Origin: Betaproteobacteria bacterium
Lineage (GTDB): Bacteria; Pseudomonadota; Gammaproteobacteria; Burkholderiales; Burkholderiaceae_E
NCBI GenBank assembly: GCA_043789035.1
Contig: JAYWIG010000039.1
Coordinates: forward strand, 2,434-66,433
Reading direction: 5' to 3'
Length of the DNA: 64,000 nucleotides
Part shown: piece after piece, positions 8,191 to 37,221 of the stretch
Layout of the letters: each line of letters opens with the position of its first letter
How positions within the stretch are numbered: position 1 is the first letter of the stretch
Position numbers and translations under genes: made by a program
Notes under the pieces: model-generated
Database searches by the model: none
The model's input: only the letters and a program-made list of their open reading frames with translations
What the model was told of the DNA's origin: nothing

Positions 8191-8239
8191 AAGAGAACTC
8201 CAAGTAACTTCGCCCACCGCGAAGCGTGAATAGGAAAAC

Positions 8240-8440: not shown

Positions 8441-8478
8441 GAAAGCGTCCTAATGATAACTTATGAAAATGAAGAGTC

Positions 8479-11403: not shown

Positions 11404-11592
11404 AATCTGCCCTGCGGTGTACGAGTAGAGCCAATCATTCCTTGAACCAATGCTTATAGCAAACAGGCTGTGGTGATTAGCGTGTTTTACTGTTGTGATT
11501 GTCCCTCGCGGACGAACCTGATGTAGAGCCCACTGCGGCCGACCTGAACCCCGGTTCAGGATGCTGGCTAGACGGCACAGGCGGGGCACCCT
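11404..11592 (+). ncRNA. ssrS: 6S RNA
   Basis: It lies directly 3' of zapA. The 5' UGCCCUGC pairs with the 3' GCGGGGCA to form the closing stem. An internal hairpin GAACCCCGGUUCAGG resembles the E. coli 6S 3'-arm hairpin. A T8 run follows at 11592-11599. The ends are approximate. Confidence 0.7.
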
Positions 11593-13550: not shown

Positions 13551-13586
13551 AGTGTCTCCTTACAACTTAAAAAATTATTTTGATGT

Positions 13587-15652: not shown

Positions 15653-15957
15653 GTATGCGTCAATGAACTAGGGAAAGACTCAAATTCTATCGGGCTGGAT
15701 GGCGAAATAGAGCAGTGTTGTTTTTATGGGGACTCGGATAAAAAAATCTAACGGCAAACACACCCCCAAAACCTATTTTGTTTGGATTGTTCGAACTTCA
15801 ATTATTGGCATCAAGAAGGAAGCAGTGGCCCCGACCACTTGTCGGGGTCACGTTGACCGGACAAGCTCCAAATAGCCAGAATTAAGGATAGAAAAGTGTT
15901 AAGGCAACTGGATCGCTCGCTCCAATGGCGATTCGGCAGATTTTAACGAACAAACAC

Positions 15958-17934
15958 ATGAAGTTTATTAGCCAGTTACCAGGACCCATTAAATCGCTAC
16001 GCTTTAAGCGGGCTGTAGCTTTACGCCTATCGATGGCAGCCGTATTTGTTTGCCTTACAGGCTGCGCAGCCGCTCCTGCAACTACGGGTGTTAGCGTACG
16101 GGACACTACTGCGGAACCAAGCCTAGGCTACTTCATTCCCCAAAATACTTTTAGCCAACAAAAACCTAGTTTGCAGGTAGCTTTACCGCAGACATACCCA
16201 CCTCTTTCTACTTCAGAAACGCTAAAACCGTTTACAGCAAAAGTGGTTTTGTATGTTTCTACTACTACTCAGAATTACCTTAATAACGGTAACCTAGATG
16301 CTGGCTACGCACCACAGGTCTGGGAAGTGTTCCTAAAAAAATACAAAATCCCCTACCAAGTTGTCACGAGTATAGGGGACCTAGAGACCACGAGCACCGG
16401 CGTTCTGGTCTTACCTTCATCCGTCGCCTTATCCATAAGAGAGCGACATGCGATAGCCAGTTTTCGTGCGCGTGGCGGAAGCGTCTTAGCAACGTGGCTC
16501 TGCGGAGTAAGAGACGATACTGGCAATTGGGTTGGTTTCGACTTCATGGAAAAGACGCTTGACGCAAAGGTTGTCGGAGATACTTCAAAGGATAAGCACG
16601 ATAATTTTTTAATGCCCAACGGTGACAGCCCGATTTCGAACGCCTTGCCCGCGGGCCGCAGAGTCTGGTTGGAAAGAGCCAAAGAATGGTACCCATTGCG
16701 GTTAGCTGGTCGAAATAGCGCTGCACACATCATGGACTGGTCACGCACATTCGACGTCGACAAAGAAACTAGTGTCATCGTTTTTGACGAGCGGCCTTTA
16801 GACCAAAGCGGAGCTTCTCGCAGCGTTGTGATTGGCTATCCCGAAAGGCTTTGGCAAAGTGCAAACCCTGAACACATAGAAGCGATAAACTATGATGCCA
16901 TTATGTGGCTACTTAGACTTCCAAGCGCCTACAAAGTGGCCTGGCCCGCACCGTTTACGAGCGCAACCGCAATCACCATAGATGCTGCAGAAGTAATCGC
17001 TGCGCCCGATATGAGCATCGCAGATCTTATAGAAAAGACTGGTGCAAAAGCAACCTACTACAGTGTTGCTGAACACGTTCCAAAATCGGTAAAGAACCTA
17101 GTTGAGTTGCAAAAGCGAGGACATGAACTTGGCTTTATGGGGGATTCGTTTAATGGCTTCGAAGGGCAATCGCCGGCAATTCAAGCTATGCGCCTTGAAA
17201 AAATGAAGCAAAAATTTAAAGACGCAGGCCTGTCGATGCCAGCTAACCCCGGCTTTCATGCTCCGACCGAATCCTACGACAAGAACACGGTAGAACTGCT
17301 TTTGAAAAGAGGATTTGGCCATTATGTTTCGTTCATGGATGCGACAGATTCAAGGCTCCCGTTTATTGCGCCTACAGGTAACAATGCAGCAACAAACACC
17401 GCCTCAATCTCGACAGTTGTTCTGCCCCGAACCCAGCGCGGGCCTGAAGACGCAACCGAAGAAGGTGTTGTTGACGACGGCTTAAAGTCATTTTTCGCAG
17501 AACTCACGCTCGCAGAGAAAATGGGCGGCTTATCCGTCGTTCGATTACCTACTCAGAGCCTATTACCCATAGAAGAGTGGACAAAAGTCTTTAAGGACTT
17601 TGAAACTCGCAAAAATAGGATGTGGATGCCGACTGGCGCAACCATTGCCCATTGGTGGCGTGAGCGTGAACGAGTCAATGCAAAAATTGAAGGAATATCG
17701 AGTTCACCAGAATTAAAAGTTGAAATCATAGGCACAACGACTCTCGAGAAAGACGTTGTGGTGTGGGTGAACTTACCGACTTCAGGAAGTACGCTAACGA
17801 TGATCAACTCCGATTCATCAACGGCCTCCGACCCTTTGCCAAAAGTGTTCCGAGTAGACCAATGGCGAGCAGGAATACTGCTGGTCAACTTGAAACCCGG
17901 CAGCCACCGCTGGCGCTTACAGTTCAAAAGTTAA
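15958..17934 (+). CDS. Lipoprotein: conserved N-terminal domain plus a CE4/NodB-like polysaccharide-deacetylase-fold domain with degenerate active-site motifs
   Basis: The lipobox is VCLTGC. It is a paralog of 35368-37221, sharing GVLVLPSxVALS...GGSVLATW, VVLPRTQR and HWWRxRxR. The deacetylase motif positions read TIDAAE / GFMGDSF / FHAPTESY, so the His-His pair and the Arg are missing. Confidence 0.6.
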   Translation: MKFISQLPGPIKSLRFKRAVALRLSMAAVFVCLTGCAAAPATTGVSVRDTTAEPSLGYFIPQNTFSQQKPSLQVALPQTYPPLSTSETLKPFTAKVVLYVSTTTQNYLNNGNLDAGYAPQVWEVFLKKYKIPYQVVTSIGDLETTSTGVLVLPSSVALSIRERHAIASFRARGGSVLATWLCGVRDDTGNWVGFDFMEKTLDAKVVGDTSKDKHDNFLMPNGDSPISNALPAGRRVWLERAKEWYPLRLAGRNSAAHIMDWSRTFDVDKETSVIVFDERPLDQSGASRSVVIGYPERLWQSANPEHIEAINYDAIMWLLRLPSAYKVAWPAPFTSATAITIDAAEVIAAPDMSIADLIEKTGAKATYYSVAEHVPKSVKNLVELQKRGHELGFMGDSFNGFEGQSPAIQAMRLEKMKQKFKDAGLSMPANPGFHAPTESYDKNTVELLLKRGFGHYVSFMDATDSRLPFIAPTGNNAATNTASISTVVLPRTQRGPEDATEEGVVDDGLKSFFAELTLAEKMGGLSVVRLPTQSLLPIEEWTKVFKDFETRKNRMWMPTGATIAHWWRERERVNAKIEGISSSPELKVEIIGTTTLEKDVVVWVNLPTSGSTLTMINSDSSTASDPLPKVFRVDQWRAGILLVNLKPGSHRWRLQFKS

Positions 17935-17948
17935 AAGTTAGAAATTCA

Positions 17949-18407
17949 ATGAACACACTTACTGATTACTTTCGTTCGCAACAAGTCCCCTTGCAATGGT
18001 CTCCTTTGTTAAGGGCACTTGGCCAAGAACTAGTAGTAAATGCGGATAAGCAGGCTCTGCATCAATTGTTTTTTAATGTCGGCAGCAGATTTGCGACAAC
18101 TGTATTGCCACAATTCTCTGGAATTGCAACGCTGAAAGAACTAAATGAAGCTCTTAACGGCGTGTGGGCATCTATGAGTTGGGGTTATGTAGAGCTCACT
18201 GAGGCCACTACTGCCATTGAAATAGAACATCGTTACGCGCCGCTAGCAGAAGCCTTCGGTGACGAAATGTTGGAATGGTCTATCGGCGTAATGGAAGGCT
18301 TTTATCAAGCTGTTTTTCATTCTTTTGGTGCGAGCGAGAAAATGACTGCAAAATATGTTTCTGAGAAAAGTGATGCTTTACAAATTCACCTACGCTTGGT
18401 TCCTTAA
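17949..18407 (+). CDS. bcsD: Cellulose synthase subunit D (BcsD/AcsD-like)
   Basis: 152 aa. LNEALNGVWASMSWGYVELTE...IEIEHRY and WSIGVMEGFYQAV parallel Komagataeibacter AcsD (LQIELNALLAMINWGYVKLDL...RIVHEDL, WLAPVLEGLYGRW, from memory). The ORF-track start at 17763 overlaps the upstream gene, so the ATG at 17949 is preferred. Confidence 0.75.
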   Translation: MNTLTDYFRSQQVPLQWSPLLRALGQELVVNADKQALHQLFFNVGSRFATTVLPQFSGIATLKELNEALNGVWASMSWGYVELTEATTAIEIEHRYAPLAEAFGDEMLEWSIGVMEGFYQAVFHSFGASEKMTAKYVSEKSDALQIHLRLVP

Positions 18408-18444
18408 GGTGCCCGTGTTTCAGTAATTAACACCAGAACCGACC

Positions 18445-19065
18445 ATGACCAACATAACACCAACCCAGCAACTGTTTGCAGCCTTAAAACCGGAAGATAG
18501 TTCAAGTCAAAAGGCAATCAATGAGGCTACACAAGCTGCAGAGAAACGCTGGCCACTATTAAAGTCACTCGCTCCTGAAAAGTGGGCCATCGCCCCGGCG
18601 CTTTCTGAAGATGAGAAGCTACGTCGGAATCGACTAGAGCCAATCGAAGTAGTTCCTCGAAAACCGGCTGCGTCAGCGCCAAACATTAACGCTCAACTAG
18701 CAAACGCTTTAAACCGCATGGCAGCTGCAAAGCCTTTAGGCGTTACAAAAGATATTACGCATGCACCAACTACCCCAGCTCAATTGCCGACTACAGGTTC
18801 AATTGTTAAGACGGCTCCAGTTACCGCTGCCTTTACCTCTGTACTTACCGCCTCCATTGCAGCGCAGGCATCCACCCACGAAGCGGAGCCAACAACCACT
18901 CCAGTGCCAATATTCAAGCCTGCTTCAGCCTCAGTAGTGCAGCCCAGTAAGCCTAGCGACAATTCGATTTTGTCTGTACTGAAACGCGTCGAACTGGCAA
19001 ACGTTGCAGAGCCTATCGACAAAGAAAAAATATCAGGATTTCTTTCAAGGCTAGGCAAAAGATGA
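18445..19065 (+). CDS. BcsR-like (RWPLL motif) protein with long Pro/Thr/Ala-rich extension
   Basis: AAEKRWPLLKSLAPEK resembles the C-terminal ALKRWPLLAEF of E. coli BcsR. The gene lies directly 5' of bcsQ with an ATGA overlap. The remaining ~150 aa are low-complexity and P/T/A-rich. Confidence 0.5.
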   Translation: MTNITPTQQLFAALKPEDSSSQKAINEATQAAEKRWPLLKSLAPEKWAIAPALSEDEKLRRNRLEPIEVVPRKPAASAPNINAQLANALNRMAAAKPLGVTKDITHAPTTPAQLPTTGSIVKTAPVTAAFTSVLTASIAAQASTHEAEPTTTPVPIFKPASASVVQPSKPSDNSILSVLKRVELANVAEPIDKEKISGFLSRLGKR

Positions 19066-19826
19066 GTGTGATTAGTGTTATTTCGATGAAGGGAGGGGTA
19101 GGAAAAACCTCGATCACGGCTAATTTAGCCAGTGCTATCTCCCAACGTCCAAATGCACCAACAGTGGCGGTCATTGATCTCGACCCACAAAACGCGCTGC
19201 AATGGCACTTTGGTTTCATGGAACAACAGTCTGCGGGAATTTGCCAACTTTCAGTCAAGGTCGGCGCACTAAACGAAGCTCACCTAAAAACAGACAAAAA
19301 CATCCTTTGTTACCCCTATGGGTTTGCTGATGAACCTACCCGCAAAGATTTTGAATCGCTTTTGAAAGAGAATCCAGAATGGTTGAAGCAGCAAATTCAG
19401 AGTCTAGATTTACCATCTGAATCGATTATCTTAATAGATACACCGCCAGGCCAATCACCCTATATGGCCCAAGCAATGTCTGCCGCCAATCTTGCTCTGG
19501 TGGTCCTATTGGCGGATGGTGCATCCTATGCAACCGCTCCTATGATGGAAACAGTCTTTGAGGAAATGATTCCTCTGAATCCGTACTTAAGAAGCGCGTA
19601 CCTGATCAATCAGGTAGACCCGACCAATGCCTTAAGTACAGATATCCAAGTAATGCTTACCCAACGATTAGGCAATAGATTGGTGCCGGTTCAGATTAGT
19701 GAAGATGAAGCGGTACGAGAAGCATTAGCCTTCCAGCAATCAGTTTTGATTTACGATGAAAACGGTTTAGCTAGCCATGATTTTGCAAGGCTAGCCGAAT
19801 GGACAATGGGGCTAGATTTGTCATGA
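19062..19826 (+). CDS. bcsQ: BcsQ (YhjQ/WssA)-like MinD/ParA-family ATPase
   Basis: Motifs VISMKGGVGKTSITANLA, VIDLDPQN and IDTPPG. It lies immediately upstream of the bcsA-like gene. Confidence 0.8.
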   Translation: MSVISVISMKGGVGKTSITANLASAISQRPNAPTVAVIDLDPQNALQWHFGFMEQQSAGICQLSVKVGALNEAHLKTDKNILCYPYGFADEPTRKDFESLLKENPEWLKQQIQSLDLPSESIILIDTPPGQSPYMAQAMSAANLALVVLLADGASYATAPMMETVFEEMIPLNPYLRSAYLINQVDPTNALSTDIQVMLTQRLGNRLVPVQISEDEAVREALAFQQSVLIYDENGLASHDFARLAEWTMGLDLS

Positions 19827-21901
19827 ATCCTAGGCTAGTGCTACAGCTTTGGCGTCAAAGATGGGGGAAGGCCGAGGAAGGCTTTGCTGAAAAGATGTAC
19901 GTTGAAGGCAAGATATCAGATTGGCTGGGAAACGTACCGTATTCAACGGTATGGAGTAACGCCGGAGTAACTGGCTTAGTGGTGCTTGTAAGCGCAGTTT
20001 TTCTTTTGGTTGTTAGCCAAATCAACTTCTCCATGAACGGACAAATTACATTTGCTGGTTTAATGATCACGATCGCAATGTACTTACGCCGTTTCAAAGG
20101 CCAATTAATTACCCTTATGCTTGCGTGTCTATCACTAATTTGTACGCTTCAATACTTCATATGGAGGTTGGAGCAATCAATAGCCGAGCAGACTGGCATT
20201 GCATTTGTTTGGGCCTTTGTTGTTGGTTCAGCCGAAGTTTGCGTAGCGTTTTACCTAGCCGTCGGTTGGCTCATTCACCTATGGCCTAGCGAACAAGGGG
20301 AAGTTGTTCTTGGTCCAAACGAAAACGCCTATCCATTGATCGATCTCGTCATCATTTGCTCAGATGCCGATGAGCAACAAGCCACTAAACAAATAAATGC
20401 CGGTGCCGGCCTAGACTGGCCAACTAAAAAAGTTCAACTTTTTATTACCGATTCACAAAATAGACAAGCGATTAAAGAACTCGCGGCAAAACTTAATGCA
20501 AATTTCAACGAGACACTAGCGTCAAACATTGCAGTAGGCACCAGTGATCTGCTTGTGCTGATCGAGGTAGGAGATGACGACCCAACGCTACTGCCAAAAG
20601 ACTTTCTACAGCATACTATTGGGTGGTTCGTAGAGGACGCGGGTCTCGCTATTTTGTCGAATTCAACGCATTTCTTGGCACACAAACCTTGTGAAAAAAT
20701 TCTAAGAAAGTATTCGCAGTCAAGCCATAGCCGCGCGGTCCTTCGGCGAGCAGAATTACCTATTGACCAGAACGCTACTAACAACGCCCTAAAAGCCAGA
20801 CTAAAAGCCAGAAGCGCGTTACTCGTCGATGCACCTGTTCGGCAGGCAAACGTGCAAAGTAAGTTTCTTCGGGTTGATCGTGCCGATTCAAACGTAATTA
20901 CACAAGGCAAAGAAGCCCTTGTTAACCTATACCAAATGCTACAGTTTTATAGCCTGCTCGTAACGCTCTTGTTTTTTGTCGTACCGGTTGCAACCCTTTT
21001 CGGCGGTGTACGACTATTGCAAGCTCCAATTGAATGGTGGGCCGCACACTTTTTACCATTTCTAGCCTTAGGCGCAATCACAGAAGCTAGATGTAGGGGT
21101 AACTACCGATTAGGGACATTGAAGGATATCAAAGAACTCGCTCTGAGCGCTTACTTCCTTGTTCCCGCGGCAAAGTCATTCTTAAAAACAAAACTTGCAA
21201 GCCCAGCAGTTGCAATCACTCGCTTTCAAGCAGATCAAAATACGTACCAGTTGCTTCGCACCACCGTCATTTATTTACTTTTTTGGGCAAACACTATCGG
21301 TGCCTTGCTGGGTTTCTGGGCATTACTTTTCGGAAGTACGATTCAAATTGAATGGTCGATTTTTTTCTGCGTTTGGGCGATTTGCAACTCGGCAATTTTG
21401 CTTGCAAAAAAAGCTATCGATCATGAATCCAGTGAAGTAAAGTATTTCGCTAAGAATCAAGGAAATCTAAACGGCGCAATTCGAATGCCATTTGGAAGAA
21501 CACTCGCCTGTGAAACGATGAACTTTCCAAGCCCAACGCTAACCCTAAAGACGCCGGCGACAATAGGGCTGAGTAAAGATTCAGAGGCTCAGGTGATACT
21601 CCAACATCAAAATAAATCTTATGCACTGAAGACTAAAATTTTAGAAATCAATGATCAACAATGCACAGTGTTGGTAGGTTCAGACTCTCAATCCGAATAC
21701 CAAGCACTAAAAGATGCGGTGTTTGCACGAGGTGCCAATTGGCCGAAATGGCTACCAGATCAAAATGCAGATAAACCGTTTCCAGATTGGGTCTACAAAA
21801 CCGTAGCAATTATTTCTGGCAAATCGGTAGATTTACTCACCAGTCTGACGACACGACCGAGCTGGGAGATCTTCATTCAACTTTGGAAAAAACAAAAATG
21901 A
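19823..21901 (+). CDS. BcsA-like cellulose-synthase homolog with degenerate catalytic and PilZ motifs (putative pseudo-glycosyltransferase)
   Basis: The BcsA architecture is present: N-terminal TMs, a GT2-like region, TMs and a C-terminal PilZ-like region. Collinear matches include GWFVEDAGLAILSNSTHF (BcsA GYFVEDPxLxLVQTPHFF), AVLRRAEL (AVLRRxAL) and FARGANWPKW (E. coli FARADTWALW). At the catalytic positions TED reads IDQ and Q(R/Q)xRW reads TQGKEA. HAKAGN is absent. At the PilZ positions RxxxR reads GAIR and DxSxxG reads NFPSPT. Confidence 0.7.
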   Translation: MNPRLVLQLWRQRWGKAEEGFAEKMYVEGKISDWLGNVPYSTVWSNAGVTGLVVLVSAVFLLVVSQINFSMNGQITFAGLMITIAMYLRRFKGQLITLMLACLSLICTLQYFIWRLEQSIAEQTGIAFVWAFVVGSAEVCVAFYLAVGWLIHLWPSEQGEVVLGPNENAYPLIDLVIICSDADEQQATKQINAGAGLDWPTKKVQLFITDSQNRQAIKELAAKLNANFNETLASNIAVGTSDLLVLIEVGDDDPTLLPKDFLQHTIGWFVEDAGLAILSNSTHFLAHKPCEKILRKYSQSSHSRAVLRRAELPIDQNATNNALKARLKARSALLVDAPVRQANVQSKFLRVDRADSNVITQGKEALVNLYQMLQFYSLLVTLLFFVVPVATLFGGVRLLQAPIEWWAAHFLPFLALGAITEARCRGNYRLGTLKDIKELALSAYFLVPAAKSFLKTKLASPAVAITRFQADQNTYQLLRTTVIYLLFWANTIGALLGFWALLFGSTIQIEWSIFFCVWAICNSAILLAKKAIDHESSEVKYFAKNQGNLNGAIRMPFGRTLACETMNFPSPTLTLKTPATIGLSKDSEAQVILQHQNKSYALKTKILEINDQQCTVLVGSDSQSEYQALKDAVFARGANWPKWLPDQNADKPFPDWVYKTVAIISGKSVDLLTSLTTRPSWEIFIQLWKKQK

Positions 21902-24267
21902 ACTTAAACCATCGTAAGACTTGGCTGCCGTTCGTTGATCGCTATTTGCTCGCTTTCTCCATCGTTGTAACGCTAATGATTGTTAGCCAACCTACTTTTT
22001 CCCAGACAAAACAACCTGTCGCAACAGAAACGGCTAAAGTCAAATCTTCGGTCACAACACAAGCAGTTAGTGCACTAAAAACCGTAAAAGCAGCGCCGCC
22101 ATTAGAAACACCCCTTCCGATTGCTAGTGGTGTCGAAAACTCAAATTCAGGACGCCGAGTTATTAGCCTTCCTATCAAGCAAATAGGCGCATGGTCAGCA
22201 ATTAAATTGAGAGGAGTTGACGCATCCAGAGTTCTGGCCTTCACTGTTAGAGCCGACGAGATGATTGTCGGAGCAAGACTTAGCTTGAATTATGACTACT
22301 CACCTTCATTGATTGAGGAATTGAGCCATCTTAAAGTTCTTATCAACGACAAAATTACTGCAGTCGAACAGCTCAGCCTAAACAAGGGCGTTGGTATAAA
22401 GAAGGAATATGTCCTTGATCACACCAATATGAAGGAATATAACGAACTTCGTTTTAATTTTATTGGTCACTACACGAGGCAATGTGAAGATCCTTTTCAC
22501 TCTTCGCTTTGGCTCTCCATCAATGAATCTACTACGCTTGAGCTGACTGTTGTACCGCGCGCAATCAGTGCGGATCTAAAGTATTTGCCTGCCCCGTTTC
22601 TCGACAAAAGGGACACTAATCCCTTAAATTTACCGGTTGTATTTTCCGCAACGCCATCGCTGGGAACCCTTAAGGCTGCCGGAATCGTTACATCTTGGTT
22701 TGCACTTCAAGCGGGTACTCGAGGCGCGCAATTTCCTGCCTTTTTGAATGAATTACCGAAGACCCATGCCATTGTTTTTATCAATGGCAATGAAGATGTA
22801 GCGGGGTATAAAGGTGTGCCCGGCGCGTTAATCTCCATTCAACCTAATCCTAATAATCCTCAGGCTCAATTGCTTATTATCAATGGCACCTCTGATGTGG
22901 ATTTGCTCAAAGTCGCTAGTGCCCTTGCGCTCATGCATCAAACCATGGCAGGCAGAAGTGTTGGCATCACTGAAGACGTAGTGTCTGCACTCAGAAAGCC
23001 GTATGATGCGCCGGCTTGGATAAGAACAGATCGGCCTATGAAATTCGGCGAATTGGCAAAACTCGAAGAGCTTAAAGTGCAAGGTTACTACCCAGAGTAC
23101 ATTCGCGTAAATTATCGAGTTCCTCCCGATGTATTTACCTGGCGCACAAACGGTGCACCTATCGATTTGAAGTATCGAGCGACGCGCTTGCCGTTTCATA
23201 AAAACTCGGCCTTAAACGTCGGTATCAACAACAACTTTATCGATACGATTGCATTAAATGATCCTGCTGAAAACCCTGCAAATATTCAGCTCATCCAAAC
23301 TGCGAAAAAATCGGTACGTGACGCTCATCTTAAGCTGCCGCCATATGCACTGGGGGGACGCGATCAGATGCAATTCGCATTTTCCTTTGATGTTATTAAG
23401 CAGGGTGAATGCCAAGCCTTGCCTCCGGACAATTTAACCGCATCGATTGACGCAGAATCAACGATTGATTTCAGCGTGTTCCCAAAATTCACCGCTCTGC
23501 CTAATCTCGCATTTTTTACCCAAATCGGGTTCCCTTTTACACGCGTCGCTGACTTATCAGAGACTAATGTGGTGATTTCGGATAGACCTACATCTGACGA
23601 AATCGGAGTTTACCTAATGGTGATGGGACGCATGGCCGAGGCGACCGGCTACCCACCAATAAATCATACCCTTATCAGCATTGCTGAAGTTGGCAGGGAT
23701 ATAGATAAAGACCTGATCATCATTGGTACTAGCCAGAGCCAGAAGCTCTTGTCCGATTGGGCTGCCAAGATGCCAGTGTATACCGACGGTGGCATTCGAA
23801 AGCTTAGGGAGGCAAACGTTAGTTGGCGGCCCACCTATCGCTGGGAACAAAAAGACATTGACGGAGATACAAAACCTAAGGGCTCCGTGAACCTTTCAGG
23901 CGTGGGTAACTTGGTCGCCATGATGGGTTTCGAATCTCCGCTGAAAGCCACTAGAAGCGTCGTTTTTCTGTATGCGGATCAAGCCAGCGACTTTAAGCGA
24001 ATGATCGAAACATTGCTTGATTCAGAGCGAGTGAGAAATATTCAGGGTGACTTTGTAGTCGTTGGTGACAAGGCAATTCAGCACGCCAGAGCAAGCGATA
24101 CCTACTACCTTGGACACATTCCTTGGTACAACAAGTTTCGTTGGTTCTTAGCCGACAACCCCATCCTAGTCGCATTTGTCGCATTGCTTCTAGCGTTACT
24201 GGCCTCCGCTGTTTTGTATAGGCCATTGAAGTTCGTCACAAATAAAGTATTCAAAAAAGGCAAATGA
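21898..24267 (+). CDS. bcsB: Cellulose synthase periplasmic subunit BcsB
   Basis: The ATG at 21898 overlaps the upstream stop (ATGA). It has a signal/anchor sequence and the BcsB hallmark LSLNYDYSPSLIEELSHLKVLIND. A single C-terminal TM anchor reads LVAFVALLLALLASAVLY. Confidence 0.8.
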   Translation: MNLNHRKTWLPFVDRYLLAFSIVVTLMIVSQPTFSQTKQPVATETAKVKSSVTTQAVSALKTVKAAPPLETPLPIASGVENSNSGRRVISLPIKQIGAWSAIKLRGVDASRVLAFTVRADEMIVGARLSLNYDYSPSLIEELSHLKVLINDKITAVEQLSLNKGVGIKKEYVLDHTNMKEYNELRFNFIGHYTRQCEDPFHSSLWLSINESTTLELTVVPRAISADLKYLPAPFLDKRDTNPLNLPVVFSATPSLGTLKAAGIVTSWFALQAGTRGAQFPAFLNELPKTHAIVFINGNEDVAGYKGVPGALISIQPNPNNPQAQLLIINGTSDVDLLKVASALALMHQTMAGRSVGITEDVVSALRKPYDAPAWIRTDRPMKFGELAKLEELKVQGYYPEYIRVNYRVPPDVFTWRTNGAPIDLKYRATRLPFHKNSALNVGINNNFIDTIALNDPAENPANIQLIQTAKKSVRDAHLKLPPYALGGRDQMQFAFSFDVIKQGECQALPPDNLTASIDAESTIDFSVFPKFTALPNLAFFTQIGFPFTRVADLSETNVVISDRPTSDEIGVYLMVMGRMAEATGYPPINHTLISIAEVGRDIDKDLIIIGTSQSQKLLSDWAAKMPVYTDGGIRKLREANVSWRPTYRWEQKDIDGDTKPKGSVNLSGVGNLVAMMGFESPLKATRSVVFLYADQASDFKRMIETLLDSERVRNIQGDFVVVGDKAIQHARASDTYYLGHIPWYNKFRWFLADNPILVAFVALLLALLASAVLYRPLKFVTNKVFKKGK

Positions 24268-26116: not shown

Positions 26117-26124
26117 AGGTAAAC

Positions 26125-27510: not shown

Positions 27511-27536
27511 CTTAAAGTGCGCGAAATACACCCGAA

Positions 27537-29687: not shown

Positions 29688-29727
29688 TCAATCCTTCGAA
29701 AGAAAATATAAGTAAGAAAATAGGAAA

Positions 29728-30459: not shown

Positions 30460-30777
30460 AAAGCCTCCTTCGAAGCACGACAACTAAATCGTGCCAACGT
30501 AAATACAGTCTAGGGCATTGCCTACCTAGATAGGATCGCTAAGGCTAAGAATGTACAGCGCAAAGGTCAAAGTGCTTACGACTACCGGCCTAATTTTCAG
30601 GCCCAAAGGAGACGGGGTAATGCAGATACACGATTCGCAATTGCAAAACAAGCAACAAGTAAAGAACTTTAGGTTGGATTTTTCCGCTGATCGAATTTTC
30701 TCGACCGTCCAATCATTTACTTCGTTCAACCGGACAATGAGCTGCGGATAATTGCGTGAAACTGAAGTTAAAGACGG

Positions 30778-32253
30778 ATGAAAACAGATACTCATACAAA
30801 TCAGCAACCGGCGACTCCAGCAACCGAACGAAGGAAGATCGTAGCGTCGATTTTTTCCGTCAGCTTAGGCGTAGCCGGAATGCGCGACGTAACTGCCGAT
30901 ATGGCCAGCGGCGGTATGTACGCGGTACATGTAAAAACTTCATCAGCGAGATTTGCCTTACTTGCGAGTAGCTTACAAAGCGCACTTGCTACCGGTCTGC
31001 CATGCACCATCATTACTGGTTCGGCACCAGAAGATGTACTACTGCGTTTAGAACAGTGTGGGGGTTTCTCAGTTGCAGAACTGCTTAAAAACAATCAGTT
31101 GGCAGTCTTTAGCAGTCAGGATGAATTCTCAAAAAACATGTTTCGCTATGGGGCGGAACGTTTACTTCGCGAGCTTGAAAGCGCAGGCGTCCCTGCAAGA
31201 AGTTTCCTAATTTTTGACCAAGCAGATGAGCTCTTAAGTCTGCACGACCTATTCTTAGCCTCTCAGCAAATCAAGTTAATTTCAGCGTGGTTTCGTTCAA
31301 GACAGGTCACTGCACTCATTACATTTTGCCGCTCTAATGAGCAACGAATAGAAGCTTTAAACGCGTTACTTGATGATCTTTCTGGCCTAGCACGCTTAGG
31401 TGGTGACAAAGATGGCATTGAACTAACATTTACCTATTGGCGCTCATCAGTCGAGATTATCGCGGCACGCAACTTTAGGCTTTATGTAGAAGCACTCGGA
31501 AACTATGCAGTTTCACGGCGTAGTGCCGAAAGAGCGGTCGTTGTCGAGAACACTGCACAGACCGACGAAGACGTAGTGCAACCCATGCTTGGACTTGCAG
31601 ATCTAACGCTTCCTGATGCAACTGCAGGCATAACGAGCTCGGAACGCGCAAAGCCATTTGATGATTTGCCGCATTATGTTTACACCGATCCTGATCTCGA
31701 TATACTTAAATCTAGTATTGATGGGCACTTACATAGAGTAGAAAGTTTGATTGACGTTTTGCACGCCTGCCTTGGGCGATCAAAATCGGTGATTATTCTT
31801 TCAGTCGATGAGCGGACTGACTTAAAAGAGTTGGCTAAAACAACTCACCTCTTGCGAAAAAGCCTAGGCCCAACCTCCCAGATCATTGTCCGTGAAAAAG
31901 CCGTCTCCATTACTCCCGAACTAAAGCAACTATTTACCCATTGCGGCGCAAACGCAATCATTAGCAAAGAAACCGAAATCAGCCAATACGCTACATTCTT
32001 GAATGCGGTACGGAATCAAATTTATTCGAAAGAAATCGAACCTCATTTCGAATCAATTTTCGCCAGAATTTCTCTAACTCAGAATTCGCCGATGATGCCC
32101 TTAGTACCCGGTTTTGGTAATCAGATTGAGCCAACTAAACTAAGCAATTCGTTCAGTTACAAGCCTTCACAATCAGTGCAAACAAGCGCGCATCCCATTG
32201 CCAAAAAAGCCATTGAAAAGGCCAAGAGGAGCGCAATTTCGGCGATTAACTAG
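30778..32253 (+). CDS. BcsE-like protein (N-terminal and REC*-like domains only; GIL/GGDEF* domain missing)
   Basis: IFSVSLGVAGMRDV...ASGGMYAVHV parallels E. coli BcsE VFSIGISSLWDEL..PAGGVWWFNV. LARLGGDKDGIELTFTYWRS parallels LASLRFQGDQHLLDIAFWCN. HLLRKSLGPTSQIIVREKAVSITPELKQLFTHCGANAIIS parallels HTLRRQRGSAMKILVRENTASLRATDERLLLACGANMVIP. Only ~80 low-complexity residues follow. Confidence 0.6.
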   Translation: MKTDTHTNQQPATPATERRKIVASIFSVSLGVAGMRDVTADMASGGMYAVHVKTSSARFALLASSLQSALATGLPCTIITGSAPEDVLLRLEQCGGFSVAELLKNNQLAVFSSQDEFSKNMFRYGAERLLRELESAGVPARSFLIFDQADELLSLHDLFLASQQIKLISAWFRSRQVTALITFCRSNEQRIEALNALLDDLSGLARLGGDKDGIELTFTYWRSSVEIIAARNFRLYVEALGNYAVSRRSAERAVVVENTAQTDEDVVQPMLGLADLTLPDATAGITSSERAKPFDDLPHYVYTDPDLDILKSSIDGHLHRVESLIDVLHACLGRSKSVIILSVDERTDLKELAKTTHLLRKSLGPTSQIIVREKAVSITPELKQLFTHCGANAIISKETEISQYATFLNAVRNQIYSKEIEPHFESIFARISLTQNSPMMPLVPGFGNQIEPTKLSNSFSYKPSQSVQTSAHPIAKKAIEKAKRSAISAIN

Positions 32254-32391
32254 GCACGATTGTTATGCTCTGTGGTTTGGCAGCATCCGCTCAACCACTC
32301 ATCGCCCACTTCTAACCATCCGTTATTTGAGCTAAATGGTTGCTGAACAGGCCACGTATGCTTGGAGTACTTATAAATATATGGTTCGAAA

Positions 32392-33795
32392 ATGACCAAG
32401 TTCCTCAGCCAAACCGAAAAAAATTTAAGCAGTCGTGCATGCTTGTTTGTCGTTTCGCTTGTGGTGTCGATCAGCTCGAATAACGCGATTGCGTCGGGAC
32501 CGGCAGCCCAACAACCATTATCACAGGCAAGCACCACTGATGGTGCAATTCCCTTAGCACCGTTTCAGTACATTCCAAGCCCACGCTGGAAAGAGCCCGA
32601 CGTCTCTGAAACGGCGAATCGTACACCAGCACAGCAAAAAGTTGCCGAGCTTTATAAGCAAGGTAACTATTCAAAAGCTGCTACGGAAGGCATGCTTTTA
32701 CTGACTAAAGAAAAGGTTGACGACTTACTGCAACTTTCCATTGCGAACAGCCTCGCGTGGGTGGGTCGCACGAAAGAAGCTGGTCAGCTCTATCGAGTTT
32801 TGCAGCCAAGCAAATACAAAACAGAAGCCCTGCTCGGCTTAGCCAACCTCCATCGTTGGCAAGGTCGCGATCATTTGGCCCTTCCGATGTATAAAGAAAT
32901 TCTTACGATAGAGCCTGAAAACAAAGACGCGATTGAAGGCCTAAGGCTAGCCACAAGAGAGGTGAGGCCACGCACAACTATTACCCTTGGTGCCCTACAC
33001 GATTCTTCTAACGTCGAGGTTCGTTCACTTAAACTAAACCATCGCTGGACAGACGAATCAATGGCCAATGTTTGGGAAATTGAAACTGGCACTTTACACA
33101 GTAAAGGCCCTACAGTTACCGTAAGCCGACCAAGTCTTACTGTTCGATTCAAGGCTCAGGAATCGATCTTTAAGCCTCGGCTAGAGCTAGGGTCTGATGG
33201 CAAAAACGTCTACGGCAATGTCGGGATTTCGCTCGGGGACTTACCCGTGTTAATCGATGTCGGACGAGTCAATTGGGGTGAAATCTCAAACAATCCAAGA
33301 GCCTTGGCCGCACAGCTAGCGGCAACGAGAGTTAGCGCTCAAATAAACACAAGTCTTGCCTCTGGCAACCTTTTCGCACGAGCGGAGGTTAATAACATTT
33401 CAGACGGCAACACAATTATCGCTAGCACCGTTCGATTTACGCCAGGCTGGCGGCCTCTAGGGCCATACCTAAAACCACTGATCGGCTTTGAAACCCGCGA
33501 CTCAAAACAGAGCAAACTTGAATACTGGTCACCTGCTGCCGGGTATGGCTCGGCATTCGCAGGCATTACTTTGGAAAGGCAAGAATCCGACTGGAACATC
33601 TCCGCCACAATTCAGGCTGGAACCCGGCTTTATGGCGAAGCTGGGAGCAGTTGGAGCGCTTCTATGGGTGGTAAGTATTGGATGAACAAGGACTGGGCCC
33701 TAGGCTTAAGGTTATGGTCTATGGCTAGCCAGCGTGACCTACAACGTTACCGAGCCACTTCTGCTTTTGCGACCGTAGAAAAGCTGTGGGATTAA
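32392..33795 (+). CDS. Outer-membrane TPR plus beta-barrel export porin (PgaA/BcsC-like, short)
   Basis: It has a signal peptide and TPR-like repeats (AELYKQGNYSKAATEGMLLL; LGLANLHRWQGRDHLALPMYKEILTIEPENKDAIEGL). The following ~290 aa show an alternating-hydrophobic, Gly/aromatic-rich strand pattern. Confidence 0.5.
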   Translation: MTKFLSQTEKNLSSRACLFVVSLVVSISSNNAIASGPAAQQPLSQASTTDGAIPLAPFQYIPSPRWKEPDVSETANRTPAQQKVAELYKQGNYSKAATEGMLLLTKEKVDDLLQLSIANSLAWVGRTKEAGQLYRVLQPSKYKTEALLGLANLHRWQGRDHLALPMYKEILTIEPENKDAIEGLRLATREVRPRTTITLGALHDSSNVEVRSLKLNHRWTDESMANVWEIETGTLHSKGPTVTVSRPSLTVRFKAQESIFKPRLELGSDGKNVYGNVGISLGDLPVLIDVGRVNWGEISNNPRALAAQLAATRVSAQINTSLASGNLFARAEVNNISDGNTIIASTVRFTPGWRPLGPYLKPLIGFETRDSKQSKLEYWSPAAGYGSAFAGITLERQESDWNISATIQAGTRLYGEAGSSWSASMGGKYWMNKDWALGLRLWSMASQRDLQRYRATSAFATVEKLWD

Positions 33796-35135
33796 AGAAG
33801 TATTACAAGTACATCATCAGTGGAGCTGTTCTAGGCACGCTGGCGATTCTGCTCAGCTTAAGTTATGAGTCCGTAGTTCAGTCAAAGGCATCATTTGCGC
33901 TTTTACTTGAAAACTATGTTCTGGCCGCAATTAGCCTTTATCTCATTGTATTTCTCGGGCTTTTAGTTCTTCGATACGCCGTGCTCATTCTTTATTCGTT
34001 TCTGGACCATCTCGAAGCGCTAAAAAGAGGGCCAATCATTTACTCCGAAAAAAAGGAGAGCTCTTTACCGATGGTAACTTTGGTAGTGCCAGCCTATAAC
34101 GAGGGAGTAGTAATTGAGGCCGCGATTAGATCCCTATTAAATCTTGACTATCCCAATTATGAAATTCTAGTCATTGACGACGGATCAACTGACGATACCT
34201 ATGAGAAGGCGCTCGCTGTTGCGAATACTTCTGCGCTGGTTTCCGTCCGAGTTATCACTAAGCGAAACGGCGGTAAGGCAGAAGCGCTCAACACCGGCAT
34301 GAGTGCTGCCCGGGGAGAGTTCATTCTCAACATGGACGGCGATTCAAAAATGTCGCGAAACGTTCTACGGGCTTGCATTAGACATTTCGACGATCCACGA
34401 ATTGGCGCGGTTGCCGGTAATGTCAAAGTGATCAACCGTGAAAACATTTGGTCAAACATCCAAGCACTCGAGTATGTTGAAGGCCTGGCAATGGCTCGCA
34501 AAGCCCAGAGTTTTATGCGAGCCGTAAACATCATTCCTGGCCCTTTGGGCATGTTCCGCAAAAGTGTCTTACAAGAAGTGGGCGGTTATGACCACGATAC
34601 TTTCGCGGAAGATTGCGATCTGACGCTAAAACTATTAGTTAGAGGTTGGCATATCGCCTATGAACCTGACGCGGTTGCCTGGGTAGAAACGCCTAGCAAG
34701 TTACTAGACTTATTAAAACAGCGCTATCGATGGACTCGCGGCATTCTTCAGGCAACATCGAAGCACAGCTCTGCACTGTGGCAACCCCGCAAGGCGGGGT
34801 TGAACTGTTTTATTCTTTGGTACATGCTATTTGAAGGCATCATGTGGCCTTTCTCAACGGTACTAGGCAATTTATTCTTTGCCTATGTGGGTTTGCAATA
34901 TGGCTTGGCAGTTCTACTATTTTATTGGTGGTTACAACTCACAGCGCTCGACGTTATTGCCGCAGCCTACTGTGTAATTATTGAAGACGAAGATCCAAAG
35001 CTTATTTACTACTCGATTATGTTCAGACTTTTTTACATCAACATTATTGACATCTCAAAAGTGTTCGCGACCATTGAAGAATGGCGGGGAAATGCAATGA
35101 CTTGGGGAAAACTCGATAGGGAAGGGAAGCTTTAA
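33786..35135 (+). CDS. Processive family-2 glycosyltransferase, PgaC/IcaA-like, all catalytic motifs intact
   Basis: Motifs LVVPAYNE, VIDDGSTDDT, NGGKAEALN, NMDGDS (DxD), AEDCDLTLKL and QRYRWTRG (QxxRW). TM helices flank the GT domain. The GTG start overlaps the porin gene by 10 nt. Confidence 0.9.
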   Translation: MGLKKYYKYIISGAVLGTLAILLSLSYESVVQSKASFALLLENYVLAAISLYLIVFLGLLVLRYAVLILYSFLDHLEALKRGPIIYSEKKESSLPMVTLVVPAYNEGVVIEAAIRSLLNLDYPNYEILVIDDGSTDDTYEKALAVANTSALVSVRVITKRNGGKAEALNTGMSAARGEFILNMDGDSKMSRNVLRACIRHFDDPRIGAVAGNVKVINRENIWSNIQALEYVEGLAMARKAQSFMRAVNIIPGPLGMFRKSVLQEVGGYDHDTFAEDCDLTLKLLVRGWHIAYEPDAVAWVETPSKLLDLLKQRYRWTRGILQATSKHSSALWQPRKAGLNCFILWYMLFEGIMWPFSTVLGNLFFAYVGLQYGLAVLLFYWWLQLTALDVIAAAYCVIIEDEDPKLIYYSIMFRLFYINIIDISKVFATIEEWRGNAMTWGKLDREGKL

Positions 35136-35136
35136 A

Positions 35137-35361
35137 TTGGATCTGATTTCGATACTAACGACAATTATTCTTGCCACCACTATTGGCACAATTATCGTTG
35201 GCATTGCTGCGTATGCAGCATTCAAACTACGCGACAAGCGTAAACCAAAAAAGAAAGTTTCCGCTGATGGAAGTAGCTCTAATGTTGAAGAAGCTGTATT
35301 TATCAAACGATACACGCCGGCCCCCGTCAATCAAGTCGCCACAGAAGCTCCCAAACCTTAA
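35137..35361 (+). CDS. Small single-pass membrane protein (BcsF/PgaD-like position)
   Basis: 74 aa with a TTG start 2 nt after the GT2 stop. It has one N-terminal TM (ILTTIILATTIGTIIVGIAAYAAF) followed by a basic KLRDKRKPKKK tail. No sequence-family assignment was possible. Confidence 0.4.
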   Translation: MDLISILTTIILATTIGTIIVGIAAYAAFKLRDKRKPKKKVSADGSSSNVEEAVFIKRYTPAPVNQVATEAPKP

Positions 35362-35367
35362 ATTGCA

Positions 35368-37221
35368 ATGAGCACCATAGAAGCGTCGTCAAAGTCTCTA
35401 TTTTCGAAAATTGGCCCATTCATGCCAACTGTCGCGATATTGGGCGTAACCATCCCCGCTGTCATTTACATCTCCATCATGATCAGTCTCGGGTGGAGCT
35501 ACCCCATTCTGGGTGCTAAAGCCGCCACTAGTGCGTTCAGCTCTGCAAATGCCAATGTGTATTTGTACGAATCGACGGCCACGAAAGATCACTTTACAAA
35601 AATCGGCGGCAATTATGACACCCTACTAACTCCATGGCGCACGTATTTTTCGGAGCGTAATCGCTCCTACAAAACAGTCAACACAGAAGCTGCGCTAGCA
35701 AAGTTAAAAACTGGCGTACTGGTTTTGCCGTCGGCCGTCGCGTTAAGCGATGCCGAGCGAATATCAATTCTCAAATTTCGAGAAAATGGTGGTTCCGTGC
35801 TCGCCACCTGGGCAACTGGCACCAGAAACGACAGAGGCGAATGGACAGGATGGGAGCTGCTCCAACAGTTCGGAGCAACTTATATCGGCGATATTCCAAA
35901 CGACGCAGAAGCCCGTCAATTAATTTTGACAGGGGAGTCGCCACTTAGTCACAGCCAGCCCGCTGGCCAAAGAATTTGGATGGGAAAAACGCCCGAATTA
36001 CTATTAAGAATTCAAGGTGAAATGGCAGCAGGTCGGCTTATGAACTGGGCTCGTATTGCAGATGACTCTCGCAAGCAAGAAGGCGCTGTGGTGTATTCTG
36101 AAAGCGCAAATACAGGCGCAAGGGCTGCGGTATTTGCATTCTCAGAGAATGCTTGGGAATCGCGCCCTTTTGCAGCTCAACAACTCATTGATGACACCAT
36201 GAAATGGTTACTGCATGAAGCTGTGGCAGTACGCGCAGCATGGCCCAGCGGCAAACGAGCTGCGCAAGTAATAGAAATGGATACTGAAGAAGGCTTTCCA
36301 AATTCTCTGGAATTTGCGTCGATCATGGTTAAAAACGGTATTCCTGCAACCTGTTATGTGCTCACTTCGGTTGCAAAGTCGTTTGCTCAAACTCTGACGA
36401 GCTTGGCTAAGGGCTGCGAAATCGCGTTGCACGGCGACGTACACGATAGCTTCAAGGCTCAGGCACCCAGCGTTCAACAAAAGCGAATCAGTGACATGAA
36501 AACCGATATCGCAACTCTACTACCTGGCAACAACAAAATCACAGGTTTTAGAGCACCTACCGAAGGCTATGACCGAACTACGGAAAGCTTGTTACACAAA
36601 GCGGGTATCAGCCATCATGCAGCTGACCCTCAACGTACTGAGGCAAGGCTACCATTATTTGCGGGCATACCTGAAACAGAACCGAGTACCGATCTCGTCG
36701 TGCTGCCTCGAACTCAACGCGATGATATTAATTTAGCGTCACAAAATTTAAGTGCGGAACAAACTAGCAAAGCGTTAATTGACGACTTCGACGAAGCCGT
36801 TCGTACAGGTGCTCTCGGTTGGCTAAGCGTGCATAGCCAAAACTTCGCAGCGGGAAGTACATTGGCCAACGCATTTCCTGAGTACTTGGCACACCTTCGA
36901 AAGAGTAGCGGTAAGGTTTGGCTGGCTAGTGCAAACCAAGTGACGCAGTGGTGGCGCAATCGCGATCGGTTTAAACTTGACACGGCATATAACGGCAAAC
37001 GCTTTGACATGAACATCACTATCAAAGGATCAGAACCAGTTGCAGGCGCCAGTGTCGTGGTCATGCTACCGAAAAGAGGTTTCGTACCAAATGTCGCCGG
37101 CACAAAAATTGGCATGCCATCACCCACTGTTGAAGTGATTGACGACTTTAGAGCGTCTATCATCTACCCAACTTTAAAGCCAGGAAACTACAGCTATCAG
37201 GTAACTTTCGCGCCGAGGTAA
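35368..37221 (+). CDS. Membrane-anchored protein: conserved N-terminal domain plus a CE4/NodB-like polysaccharide deacetylase domain with motifs retained
   Basis: It has an N-terminal TM and is a paralog of 15958-17934. The deacetylase motif positions read IEMDTEEG / ALHGDVH (H-x3-H) / FRAPTEGY (R-x-P). Confidence 0.65.
   Translation: MSTIEASSKSLFSKIGPFMPTVAILGVTIPAVIYISIMISLGWSYPILGAKAATSAFSSANANVYLYESTATKDHFTKIGGNYDTLLTPWRTYFSERNRSYKTVNTEAALAKLKTGVLVLPSAVALSDAERISILKFRENGGSVLATWATGTRNDRGEWTGWELLQQFGATYIGDIPNDAEARQLILTGESPLSHSQPAGQRIWMGKTPELLLRIQGEMAAGRLMNWARIADDSRKQEGAVVYSESANTGARAAVFAFSENAWESRPFAAQQLIDDTMKWLLHEAVAVRAAWPSGKRAAQVIEMDTEEGFPNSLEFASIMVKNGIPATCYVLTSVAKSFAQTLTSLAKGCEIALHGDVHDSFKAQAPSVQQKRISDMKTDIATLLPGNNKITGFRAPTEGYDRTTESLLHKAGISHHAADPQRTEARLPLFAGIPETEPSTDLVVLPRTQRDDINLASQNLSAEQTSKALIDDFDEAVRTGALGWLSVHSQNFAAGSTLANAFPEYLAHLRKSSGKVWLASANQVTQWWRNRDRFKLDTAYNGKRFDMNITIKGSEPVAGASVVVMLPKRGFVPNVAGTKIGMPSPTVEVIDDFRASIIYPTLKPGNYSYQVTFAPR

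Follow-up and report, generated by a model that had tools for sequence, protein, structure and literature searches.

A degenerate BcsA homologue under purifying selection beside a PgaC-like glycosyltransferase in betaproteobacterial exopolysaccharide loci

Synthase-dependent exopolysaccharide (EPS) systems, such as those for cellulose, poly-N-acetylglucosamine (PNAG), alginate and Pel, are models of the biofilm matrix that are centred on the synthase. Here, we analyzed an EPS locus at positions 15925-37221 of a 64,000-nucleotide (nt) stretch of DNA (the window) from a Betaproteobacteria bacterium (GenBank assembly GCA_043789035.1, contig JAYWIG010000039.1, positions 2,434-66,433), in which a homologue of the cellulose synthase BcsA is encoded together with a PgaC-like glycosyltransferase of family GT2. 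An open reading frame (ORF) listing combined with Pfam and NCBIfam scans resolved the locus into 17 contiguous, tightly packed genes, where an initial sequence-only reading made without database searches had counted about 20; ten genes on the plus strand are followed by two on the minus strand and five more on the plus strand. Start and stop codons overlap at bcsQ1/psbcsA, psbcsA/bcsB, bcsB/bcsQ2 (4 nt), bcsQ2/GH18 (4 nt) and porin gene/GT2 (10 nt). The mixed content of cellulose (Bcs), Alg-type acetylation and Pga-like genes proposed by the sequence-only reading is real, as searches with hidden Markov models (HMMs) confirmed nearly every call, including BcsD, BcsB and, by a partial match, BcsE.

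The gene between bcsQ1 and bcsB (19799-21901, plus strand) encodes a 700-amino acid (aa) protein, here psBcsA, that had been called BcsA-like. It is a true but degenerate BcsA homologue in which the catalytic motifs and those for binding cyclic di-GMP (c-di-GMP) have been lost. No Pfam family matched it, including GT2 and PilZ (PF07238), and its score against the BcsA NCBIfam model was 200 bits at a cutoff of 992. Its alignment to E. coli BcsA (7lby, 9fmv) falls into two blocks on either side of a deletion of ~50 aa, which in the clade of the window spans the former TED and QxxRW segment. An AlphaFold 2 (AF2) model computed from 10 sequences had a mean per-residue confidence (pLDDT) of 54, with a GT-A-like core and a PilZ-like barrel at 70-85, and when this low-confidence model was used in Foldseek as support for homology, the top matches were E. 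coli BcsA (E 2.5e-23).

An alignment of E. coli BcsA, the intact BcsA of a Gallionella metagenome-assembled genome (MAG) and 10 degenerate sequences was used to follow the individual motifs. Across the 10 degenerate proteins, TYNE, DDG, KAGN, DxD, TED, QxxRW, RxxxR and DxSxxG are all lost or unconserved, with remnants consisting of the first Asp of DDG, an RxxxR in two sequences and occasional chance DxD. In the PilZ region of the window protein, RxxxR has become KYFAK and DxSxxG is replaced by NFPxxx, a signature of the family. Neither a functional set of the UDP-binding D, DxD, TED and QxxRW residues of BcsA nor the RxxxR and DxSxxG pair of a c-di-GMP-binding PilZ domain is therefore present. 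To place the protein in a wider family, 1.84 billion cluster representatives were searched exhaustively with a profile, which returned 972 hits; a word-indexed search had yielded 11 clusters and understated the family. The psBcsA family comprises at least 65 full-length representatives (of clusters at 50% identity) of ~700 aa, none of which (0/65) has QxxRW and whose other motifs are degenerate as well. Among the best 150 of the 972 hits, for which motifs were tabulated, the split was clean: the ~700-aa proteins are motifless, and nearly every BcsA or BcsAB of at least 865 aa keeps its catalytic motifs (BcsA at ~865-900 aa, BcsAB fusions at ~1450 aa).

Judged by these motifs psBcsA cannot be a synthase, since every GT2 and PilZ motif is gone, and the locus consequently does not combine two synthases. 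The sequence-only reading had envisaged active BcsA-like and PgaC-like enzymes that make two polymers or a mixed glucose/N-acetylglucosamine (GlcNAc) polymer. Homologues of both enzymes are indeed present, and a locus of the Gallionella type, with its intact BcsA, could work in this way; for the window this reading is very improbable, as no functional DxD, TED, QxxRW or UDP-binding motif was found in its psBcsA or in the 65 representatives, and in its clade the TED/QxxRW segment is physically deleted.

Despite the loss of its motifs, psBcsA is under purifying selection and is not a decaying pseudogene, as indicated by open frames, low ratios of nonsynonymous to synonymous substitution (dN/dS) and conserved patches. 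Reading frames are intact at pairwise identities of 23-87%, and dN/dS was 0.23 between the window and locus L018 and 0.13 between loci L002 and L019. Conservation is concentrated in a new N-terminal LxxWRxRW motif, the transmembrane (TM) segments, an RR pair, the NFP signature and a C-terminal RxxxWPxWLP, and is lowest in the GT-like core and in the linker that once held TED/QxxRW. Across loci, psBcsA is 23-48% identical where the GT2 enzyme is 74-92% identical; in locus L014 the two values are 34% and 92%. This rate, several-fold faster than that of its neighbours, together with the weak conservation of the core and linker, the loss of all BcsA motifs and the disappearance of BcsZ and BcsC, would be expected if the Bcs genes were non-functional leftovers that have yet to be deleted and only the GT2, porin, CE4b, GH18 and acetylation genes mattered. 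Such a relic is nevertheless improbable given the dN/dS of psBcsA and of BcsD (0.07-0.09), BcsQ1 (0.04-0.10) and BcsB (0.04-0.14), the open frames and invariant patches in at least 65 clusters, and a Bcs gene order that is retained in full or in its visible part at six groups of loci described below.

The sole synthase of the locus predicted to be catalytically intact is the PgaC-like processive GT2 enzyme (33786-35135, plus strand; PF13641, PF00535, PF13632), which has VPAYNE, IDDGS, GKAEALN, DGD, AED and QRYRW in place. Its best family is TIGR03937 (PgaC_IcaA) at 220 bits, below the cutoff of 422, and it shares 32% identity with E. coli PgaC over 277 aa, so that it is best regarded as a homologue of PgaC and not as an equivalog. 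Homologues are abundant, with more than 6600 at E<1e-30, and no cluster among the top 120 falls below 75% identity; identity across lineages is 74-92%, with Noviherbaspirillum and Gallionella at 74-76%. Immediately downstream (35137-35361, plus strand) lies the gene for a 74-aa membrane protein in which a basic segment follows a single N-terminal TM helix. Its N-terminal 35 residues are near-invariant in eight lineages, including Gallionella and Noviherbaspirillum; across loci the protein measures 72-81 aa, and it is a called gene in four of them (L016, L017, L024 and L025). No Pfam match was found for it, nor any similarity to BcsF or, by BLASTP, to PgaD, and a BcsF-like role would be only an analogy of architecture.

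The gene upstream of the GT2 enzyme (32392-33795, plus strand) encodes a 467-aa protein with a signal peptide, for which AF2 predicted ~7 tetratricopeptide repeat (TPR) helices and a 16-stranded beta-barrel (pLDDT 82.9; predicted TM-score 0.76). E. coli BcsC (9b8a, 9b8h, 6tzk) and PelB (9h80) were the top Foldseek matches. At the sequence level, matches to TPR and PgaA were weak (TIGR03939, 23 bits at a cutoff of 367), and BLASTP similarity to PgaA was confined to 84 TPR residues; it was thus the structural model that confirmed the earlier call of a TPR-porin. With no match to PF05420 or PF01270 in any ORF of the locus, the absence of a full-length BcsC and of BcsZ was also upheld, and going by the model the locus would have an exporter, though no BcsC in the sequence sense.

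Located upstream of the porin gene is a BcsE homologue (30778-32253, plus strand, with an alternative start at 30880; PF10995, E 4e-34), whose profile match is partial, with profile positions 249-355 as the best-matched stretch, and whose similarity to E. coli BcsE is limited to the REC*-like region. Alignment of orthologues revealed that the window (491 aa) and L014 (15802-17343; 513 aa), and these two alone among the loci compared, have lost the entire GGDEF-like domain together with its RxGD I-site. The 650-aa orthologues retain the I-site, and a conserved C-terminal KAKRS tail is kept in the short forms too. The block BcsE-porin-GT2-small protein-CE4b is found in all ten loci in which the GT2 gene is visible, although the contigs of L007, L009 and L014 hold the start of CE4b alone. 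Downstream of this module, the soil metagenome locus L024 has a complete type II secretion (gsp) cluster (13496-21356), and Rhodoferax and Curvibacter share ssb-MFS-uvrA.

Two family CE4 proteins bound the locus and are paralogues with 31% identity over their full length. CE4b (35368-37221, plus strand; PF01522, E 1.8e-10) is a predicted membrane-anchored periplasmic deacetylase whose orthologues conserve MDTE(E/D/Q), HxDxH, GFRAPTE, LPRTQRDD and LS(V/I)HxQN; the usual DD is EE in them, and the CE4 motifs were assigned by eye against the family consensus. PF01522 in the middle of the protein is its sole Pfam match and no GH153 or other hydrolase domain was detected, while the best E value against E. 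coli PgaB was 0.49 and a sequence search of the PDB gave no match. CE4a (15925-17934, plus strand; PF01522, 30.5 bits) is a periplasmic lipoprotein with the lipobox LTGC that is probably non-catalytic: in all seven orthologues (window, L002, L006, L018, L010, L016 and L017) both His of HxxxH and the His of motif 5 are replaced, and six of them, all but L016, have also lost the motif-3 Arg. In the Comamonadaceae, CE4a is located among the acetylation genes and not at the 5' end of the locus.

The periplasmic hydrolase encoded at 25010-26116 (plus strand) has a signal peptide and a full-length match to GH18 (PF00704, E 1.2e-22). HLDFE is invariant in the aligned orthologues and aligns with the DFE of YdhD (3cz8), so that the catalytic D-x-E is retained, and the upstream aspartates of DxxDxDxE are replaced as in the YdhD/SleL subgroup; YdhD, SleL and YaaH are the nearest solved structures. 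GH18 enzymes cleave beta-1,4 linkages by substrate-assisted catalysis, for which a 2-acetamido group is needed. This requirement and the motif-retaining CE4b point to a GlcNAc-containing beta-glycan as the most likely product of the locus, which would possibly be partly de-N-acetylated and chitin/chitosan-like rather than beta-1,6 PNAG. A chitin/chitosan-like polymer would match partner proteins shaped for cellulose.

Four genes at the centre of the locus form the set expected for O-acetylation of a polymer, and this activity is predicted for them. They encode an AlgI-like membrane O-acetyltransferase of the MBOAT family (26125-27510, plus strand; PF03062, E 2e-34; 70-88% identical across loci), an AlgJ-like membrane-anchored SGNH acetyltransferase (27537-28694, plus strand; PF16822 (ALGX), E 2.6e-72), an AlgX-like periplasmic SGNH acetyltransferase (28683-29687, minus strand; PF16822, E 3.5e-52) and an AlgF-like protein of the acetylation machinery (29728-30483, minus strand; PF11182, 50.4 bits at a cutoff of 34.4; also PF14344).

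The remaining genes surround psbcsA, and four of them (those for BcsD, the BcsR/BcsP-like protein, BcsQ1 and BcsB) keep the usual order of a cellulose operon, from which they probably descend. BcsD (17949-18407, plus strand, with the start taken from the gene call of L001; PF03500, E 1.4e-16) is cellulose synthase subunit D, a marker of type I bcs operons. It is followed by a 206-aa BcsR/BcsP-like protein (18445-19065, plus strand) that has an N-terminal KRWPLL and then an Ala/Pro-rich region. The bcsR-like label depends on this one motif; E. coli BcsR/YhjR matches over 20 aa (E 9e-5), the NCBIfam BcsP match is weak (E 8.7e-4, under the cutoff), and RWPLL as well as a C-terminal FLxRLGKR are kept in most aligned orthologues with the exception of L020. 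BcsQ1 (19062-19826, plus strand) is a SIMIBI/MinD-type ATPase scoring 202 bits against TIGR03371 (cutoff 158). BcsB (21898-24267, plus strand), the co-polymerase subunit of the periplasm, is anchored to the membrane at its C-terminus; it matches the full PF03170 profile at 649 bits and falls under the individual cutoffs of all NCBIfam BcsB models (best 732 bits vs 750); as in Bcs systems, its gene adjoins that of the BcsA homologue. The second BcsQ-type ATPase, BcsQ2 (24264-25013, plus strand; TIGR03371, 167 bits), is 36% identical to BcsQ1, and its start overlaps the bcsB stop codon. It is encoded directly upstream of GH18 in nine of the 11 loci mapped for GH18, and the contig ends upstream in the other two (L007 and L017).

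Scanning one genome per species with a GH18 alignment recovered eight loci, all from Betaproteobacteria (four Betaproteobacteria MAGs, a Burkholderiales MAG, Polaromonas, Noviherbaspirillum malthae CC-AFH3 and the Gallionella MAG), which were mapped by tblastn and Pfam. Look-ups of GT2 homologues added four loci with BcsE-porin-GT2-small ORF-CE4b and a divergent CE4a-AlgF-AlgX upstream, namely those of Rhodoferax aquaticus (complete genome CP036282.1) and Curvibacter sp. APW13 and those on two more contigs; a metagenome scan with the GH18 alignment returned a single weak, unrelated locus. The same five genes (BcsD, BcsR/P, BcsQ1, psBcsA and BcsB) occur in order in the window clade, L010 (the Burkholderiales MAG), L014 and L021, and the four visible Bcs genes of Noviherbaspirillum and L020, whose loci are cut upstream, follow the same order. 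BcsB-BcsQ2-GH18 is shared by the window, L002, L006, L008-L011 and L014, and in L021 BcsB-BcsQ2 precedes an unannotated ORF. Rhodoferax, Curvibacter, Noviherbaspirillum, Polaromonas and many MAGs thus share the architecture. The novelty claimed by the sequence-only reading holds in so far as no published description was found, a full-text literature search having returned neither the arrangement nor dead BcsA proteins; what does not hold is a singular chimera, given its recurrence across several betaproteobacterial genera.

Comparison of the loci suggests a series from intact to dead BcsA along which BcsZ and the BcsC barrel were lost. The Gallionella MAG encodes an intact BcsA (with GT2 and PilZ Pfam matches), BcsB, a GH8 BcsZ, a full BcsC, a small TPR protein, BcsQ2 and GH18, and the GT2 module follows on the other strand. 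In Noviherbaspirillum, BcsA is dead, BcsB and a full-length BcsE are present, BcsZ is absent, and BcsC has been reduced to an 896-aa TPR part that lacks the barrel and is 37% identical to Gallionella BcsC (L012, 6120-8810). A second copy of the TPR-porin, 41% identical to that of the window, is located downstream of CE4b in divergent orientation (L012, 19132-20856). The window clade, L014 and the Comamonadaceae have a dead BcsA without BcsZ or BcsC. These loci carry the acetylation genes, which neither the Noviherbaspirillum nor the Gallionella locus has and which appear to be an optional add-on. The co-occurrence of GH8 BcsZ and GH18 in Gallionella, and the association of GH18 with BcsQ2 and the GT2 module, are also at odds with the earlier proposal that GH18 replaces BcsZ.

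The same comparison bears on whether the locus could consist of two independent neighbours, i.e., a wss-like apparatus for acetylated cellulose that uses a BcsA encoded elsewhere, and a separate Pga-like system of BcsE, porin, GT2 and CE4b. The BcsQ-BcsA-BcsB core, second BcsQ and AlgI/J/F are reminiscent of the wss operon of Pseudomonas fluorescens SBW25, and Gallionella, with intact bcsABZC alongside the GT2 module, demonstrates that separate machines are possible; L010 likewise has the Bcs and acetylation part without a GT2 module within 10 kb. Conversely, the window locus has neither BcsZ nor a BcsC barrel, leaving any cellulose without a dedicated hydrolase or exporter, and Noviherbaspirillum keeps a dead BcsA and BcsB without acetylation genes. 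BcsQ2-GH18, which follows bcsC and the small TPR gene on the GT2 side in Gallionella, is translationally coupled to bcsB in the window, and for a BcsA to act in trans it would need to dislodge a dead paralogue that is conserved and embedded in the membrane. Two independent systems are on balance unlikely.

None of the EPS systems compared here accounts for the locus as a whole. Its similarity to Bcs systems lies in homologues of D, R/P, Q (two copies), A, B and E in the usual D-R/P-Q-A-B order and in an exporter with TPR and a 16-strand barrel that fold searches place closest to BcsC. It differs from type I and II systems in its motifless BcsA, in the absence of GH8 BcsZ and BcsC (BCSC_C), in a BcsE without GGDEF-like domain and in BcsG, which was not found at the locus, and it integrates a separate GT2, GH18, two CE4 proteins and the acetylation set. 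Type II bcs operons are E. coli-like, with BcsE, BcsR, BcsQ and BcsF, and BcsE together with BcsG defines this type. The accessory mix of the locus (the BcsD of type I with the BcsE of type II, here without its GGDEF-like domain) corresponds to no type in the consulted sections of a Bcs review (PMC8892547), and the arrangement as a whole is likewise outside the operon types in those sections and in the consulted part of a systematic survey of EPS operons, which queried bcsA, B, Z and C alone.

The resemblance to Pga/Ica systems is found in the ~450-aa processive GT2 with N- and C-terminal TM helices, the small membrane partner, the CE4 deacetylase and, going by the structural model, a porin with the TPR and 16-strand barrel architecture of PgaA. 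PgaB consists of an N-terminal CE4 and a C-terminal GH153 domain, and PgaD is a partner with two TM helices that shares a c-di-GMP site with PgaC. In contrast, CE4b has neither PgaB similarity nor GH153, the small protein has one predicted TM helix, unlike PgaD, the GT2 enzyme scores 220 against 422 bits, and the 467-aa porin shares only TPR similarity with PgaA (807 aa); the module is moreover accompanied by GH18, BcsE and BcsQ. The Pga label is hence supported neither by the score of the GT2 enzyme nor by CE4b or the small protein.

With wss and Alg systems, the locus has in common the BcsQ-BcsA-BcsB core, a second BcsQ-like gene and homologues of AlgI, AlgJ, AlgX and AlgF. The wss operon encodes an active BcsA (WssB), BcsZ (WssD) and BcsC (WssE), and is not known to contain a second GT2, GH18, CE4, BcsD or BcsE. 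The locus, by contrast, has a dead BcsA, a second GT2, GH18, CE4 proteins, BcsD and BcsE, and acetylation genes that are optional. The nearest published idea concerns sfz/sfb, clusters put forward as candidates for stalk formation in Fe-oxidising Zeta- and Betaproteobacteria, for which an extracellular polysaccharide has been proposed and in which a BcsB-like protein is encoded beside a GT2 that is not BcsA (PMC8250860), providing a precedent for the pairing of a BcsB-type protein with another synthase. These experimentally uncharacterised clusters differ in having Sfz2, a fusion of GT2 and an EpsE-like part, and a GH10-like hydrolase, and in lacking BcsD, BcsQ, BcsE, CE4, GH18 and a dead BcsA (PMC8250860). 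A link to the sheath genes of Leptothrix/Sphaerotilus or to the stalk genes of Fe oxidisers was rejected, as LthB is a GT8 protein and the sfz/sfb genes differ. The locus thus lacks the catalytic BcsA, PilZ, BcsZ and BcsC that would make it a cellulose system, and also the PgaC equivalog, PgaB and PgaD of a Pga system. It is a variant among synthase-dependent EPS systems, with the pseudo-synthase family as its most interesting and most testable element.

Taken together, we consider a single synthase-dependent secretion system for a GlcNAc polymer, which took over a non-catalytic Bcs scaffold, to be the best explanation and assign it a probability of about 0.5. In this system, the PgaC-like GT2 with its 74-aa single-pass partner would polymerise the glycan and translocate it across the inner membrane; in the periplasm, GH18 would trim the polymer and CE4b would de-N-acetylate it, AlgI/J/X/F would, in this lineage, O-acetylate it, and export would take place through the small TPR and 16-strand barrel porin. 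BcsD, the BcsR/P-like protein, BcsQ1, psBcsA and BcsB would be descendants of a type I cellulose operon that no longer make cellulose and are kept as a non-catalytic scaffold in the inner membrane and periplasm or as a regulatory platform for the GT2 enzyme, with BcsQ2 and BcsE linking this remnant to the GT2 part. According to the Bcs review (PMC8892547), E. coli BcsB forms a periplasmic crown and a BcsR-Q-E module docks on BcsA. The retention of BcsB and the R-Q-E partners around a dead BcsA is what would be expected if selection preserves the platform and not catalysis. More tentatively, these proteins (the dead, c-di-GMP-blind psBcsA with BcsB, BcsD and BcsR/Q) may act as a weaving apparatus that organises, guides or bundles a chitin/chitosan-like beta-1,4 glycan of GlcNAc and glucosamine made by the separate GT2; this more specific proposal is possible but clearly less probable than the general one.

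Several points weigh against a single system of this kind. A physical or functional coupling between the Bcs remnant and the GT2 enzyme is something we infer, as are the identity of the polymer and its acetylation pattern, and the adjacency of the two parts is not universal, since in L010 the 10 kb downstream of GH18 and the acetylation genes contain no GT2 module. The nearest characterised family of the GT2 makes beta-1,6 PNAG, which is not known as a GH18 substrate, and the sugar specificity of the GT2 cannot be read from its sequence. With a pLDDT of 54, the psBcsA model does not resolve the TM region well enough to show whether a transmembrane channel is retained. The clade also appears to be without any recognisable c-di-GMP site, whether as PilZ motifs or as a BcsE GGDEF-like domain, a loss that the single-system reading does not account for. 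Finally, bcsA was viewed within the 64 kb of this genome, and an intact copy may be encoded elsewhere.

Irrespective of how the parts cooperate, the psBcsA proteins represent a large conserved family in which the cellulose synthase is dead while its partners and membrane body remain under selection beside another synthase. Should the Bcs remnant serve the GT2 enzyme, the functions of BcsB, BcsD and BcsQ would be separable from glucan polymerisation, an open question in the cellulose field, and psBcsA would constitute the first case of a pseudo-synthase serving as a scaffold in bacterial EPS secretion. The locus would then provide abundant environmental Betaproteobacteria (Rhodoferax, Polaromonas, Curvibacter and Gallionella relatives) with a new matrix polymer, and possibly with a dedicated secretion route for a chitosan-like one found widely among the Betaproteobacteria of freshwater and glacier streams. 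Automatic annotations of the homologues currently read "cellulose synthase (UDP-forming)" and "poly-beta-1,6-N-acetyl-D-glucosamine synthase", which would mislead metagenomic inference of cellulose or PNAG production. Cultured carriers exist, making the idea directly testable.

The locus is flanked on the left by the housekeeping genes lgt and malonyl-CoA decarboxylase and on the right by genes for an MFS transporter, an ABC-F protein and RecQ. A horizontal-transfer island was not supported, given a GC content like that of the flanks and the same chromosomal neighbours in four diverged metagenomic relatives, in which a dsbD-zapA-tauE-tctC-mcd-lgt flank and the gene order of the locus are both shared. 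An Rfam scan detected no riboswitch or other RNA family within the locus. Between 28 and 38 kb, promoter-like sites were below shuffled expectation, and terminator-like sites were modestly above it, with none at an operon-defining gene boundary. Directly after the locus, a 90-aa ORF (37229-37501, plus strand) matches the N-terminal domain of glutathione S-transferases alone and may be the remnant of a truncated gene.

Further features were noted elsewhere in the window. A cobalamin riboswitch (RF00174, 87 bits; 8229-8458, minus strand) lies upstream of a 669-aa ORF (6268-8277, minus strand) that presumably encodes a B12-related transporter. A 6S RNA (RF00013) at 11406-11591 (plus strand) scored 46.8 bits, just over the gathering score, and is located ~60 nt downstream of the position at which relatives encode zapA, a commonly seen arrangement. 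On the right, a 2005-aa bacterial alpha-2-macroglobulin (A2M; 43751-51930, minus strand) with bMG3, bMG10 and A2M bait-region domains is encoded directly upstream of a PBP1C-type penicillin-binding protein with transglycosylase, transpeptidase and BiPBP_C domains, A2M and PBP1C being a known gene pair.

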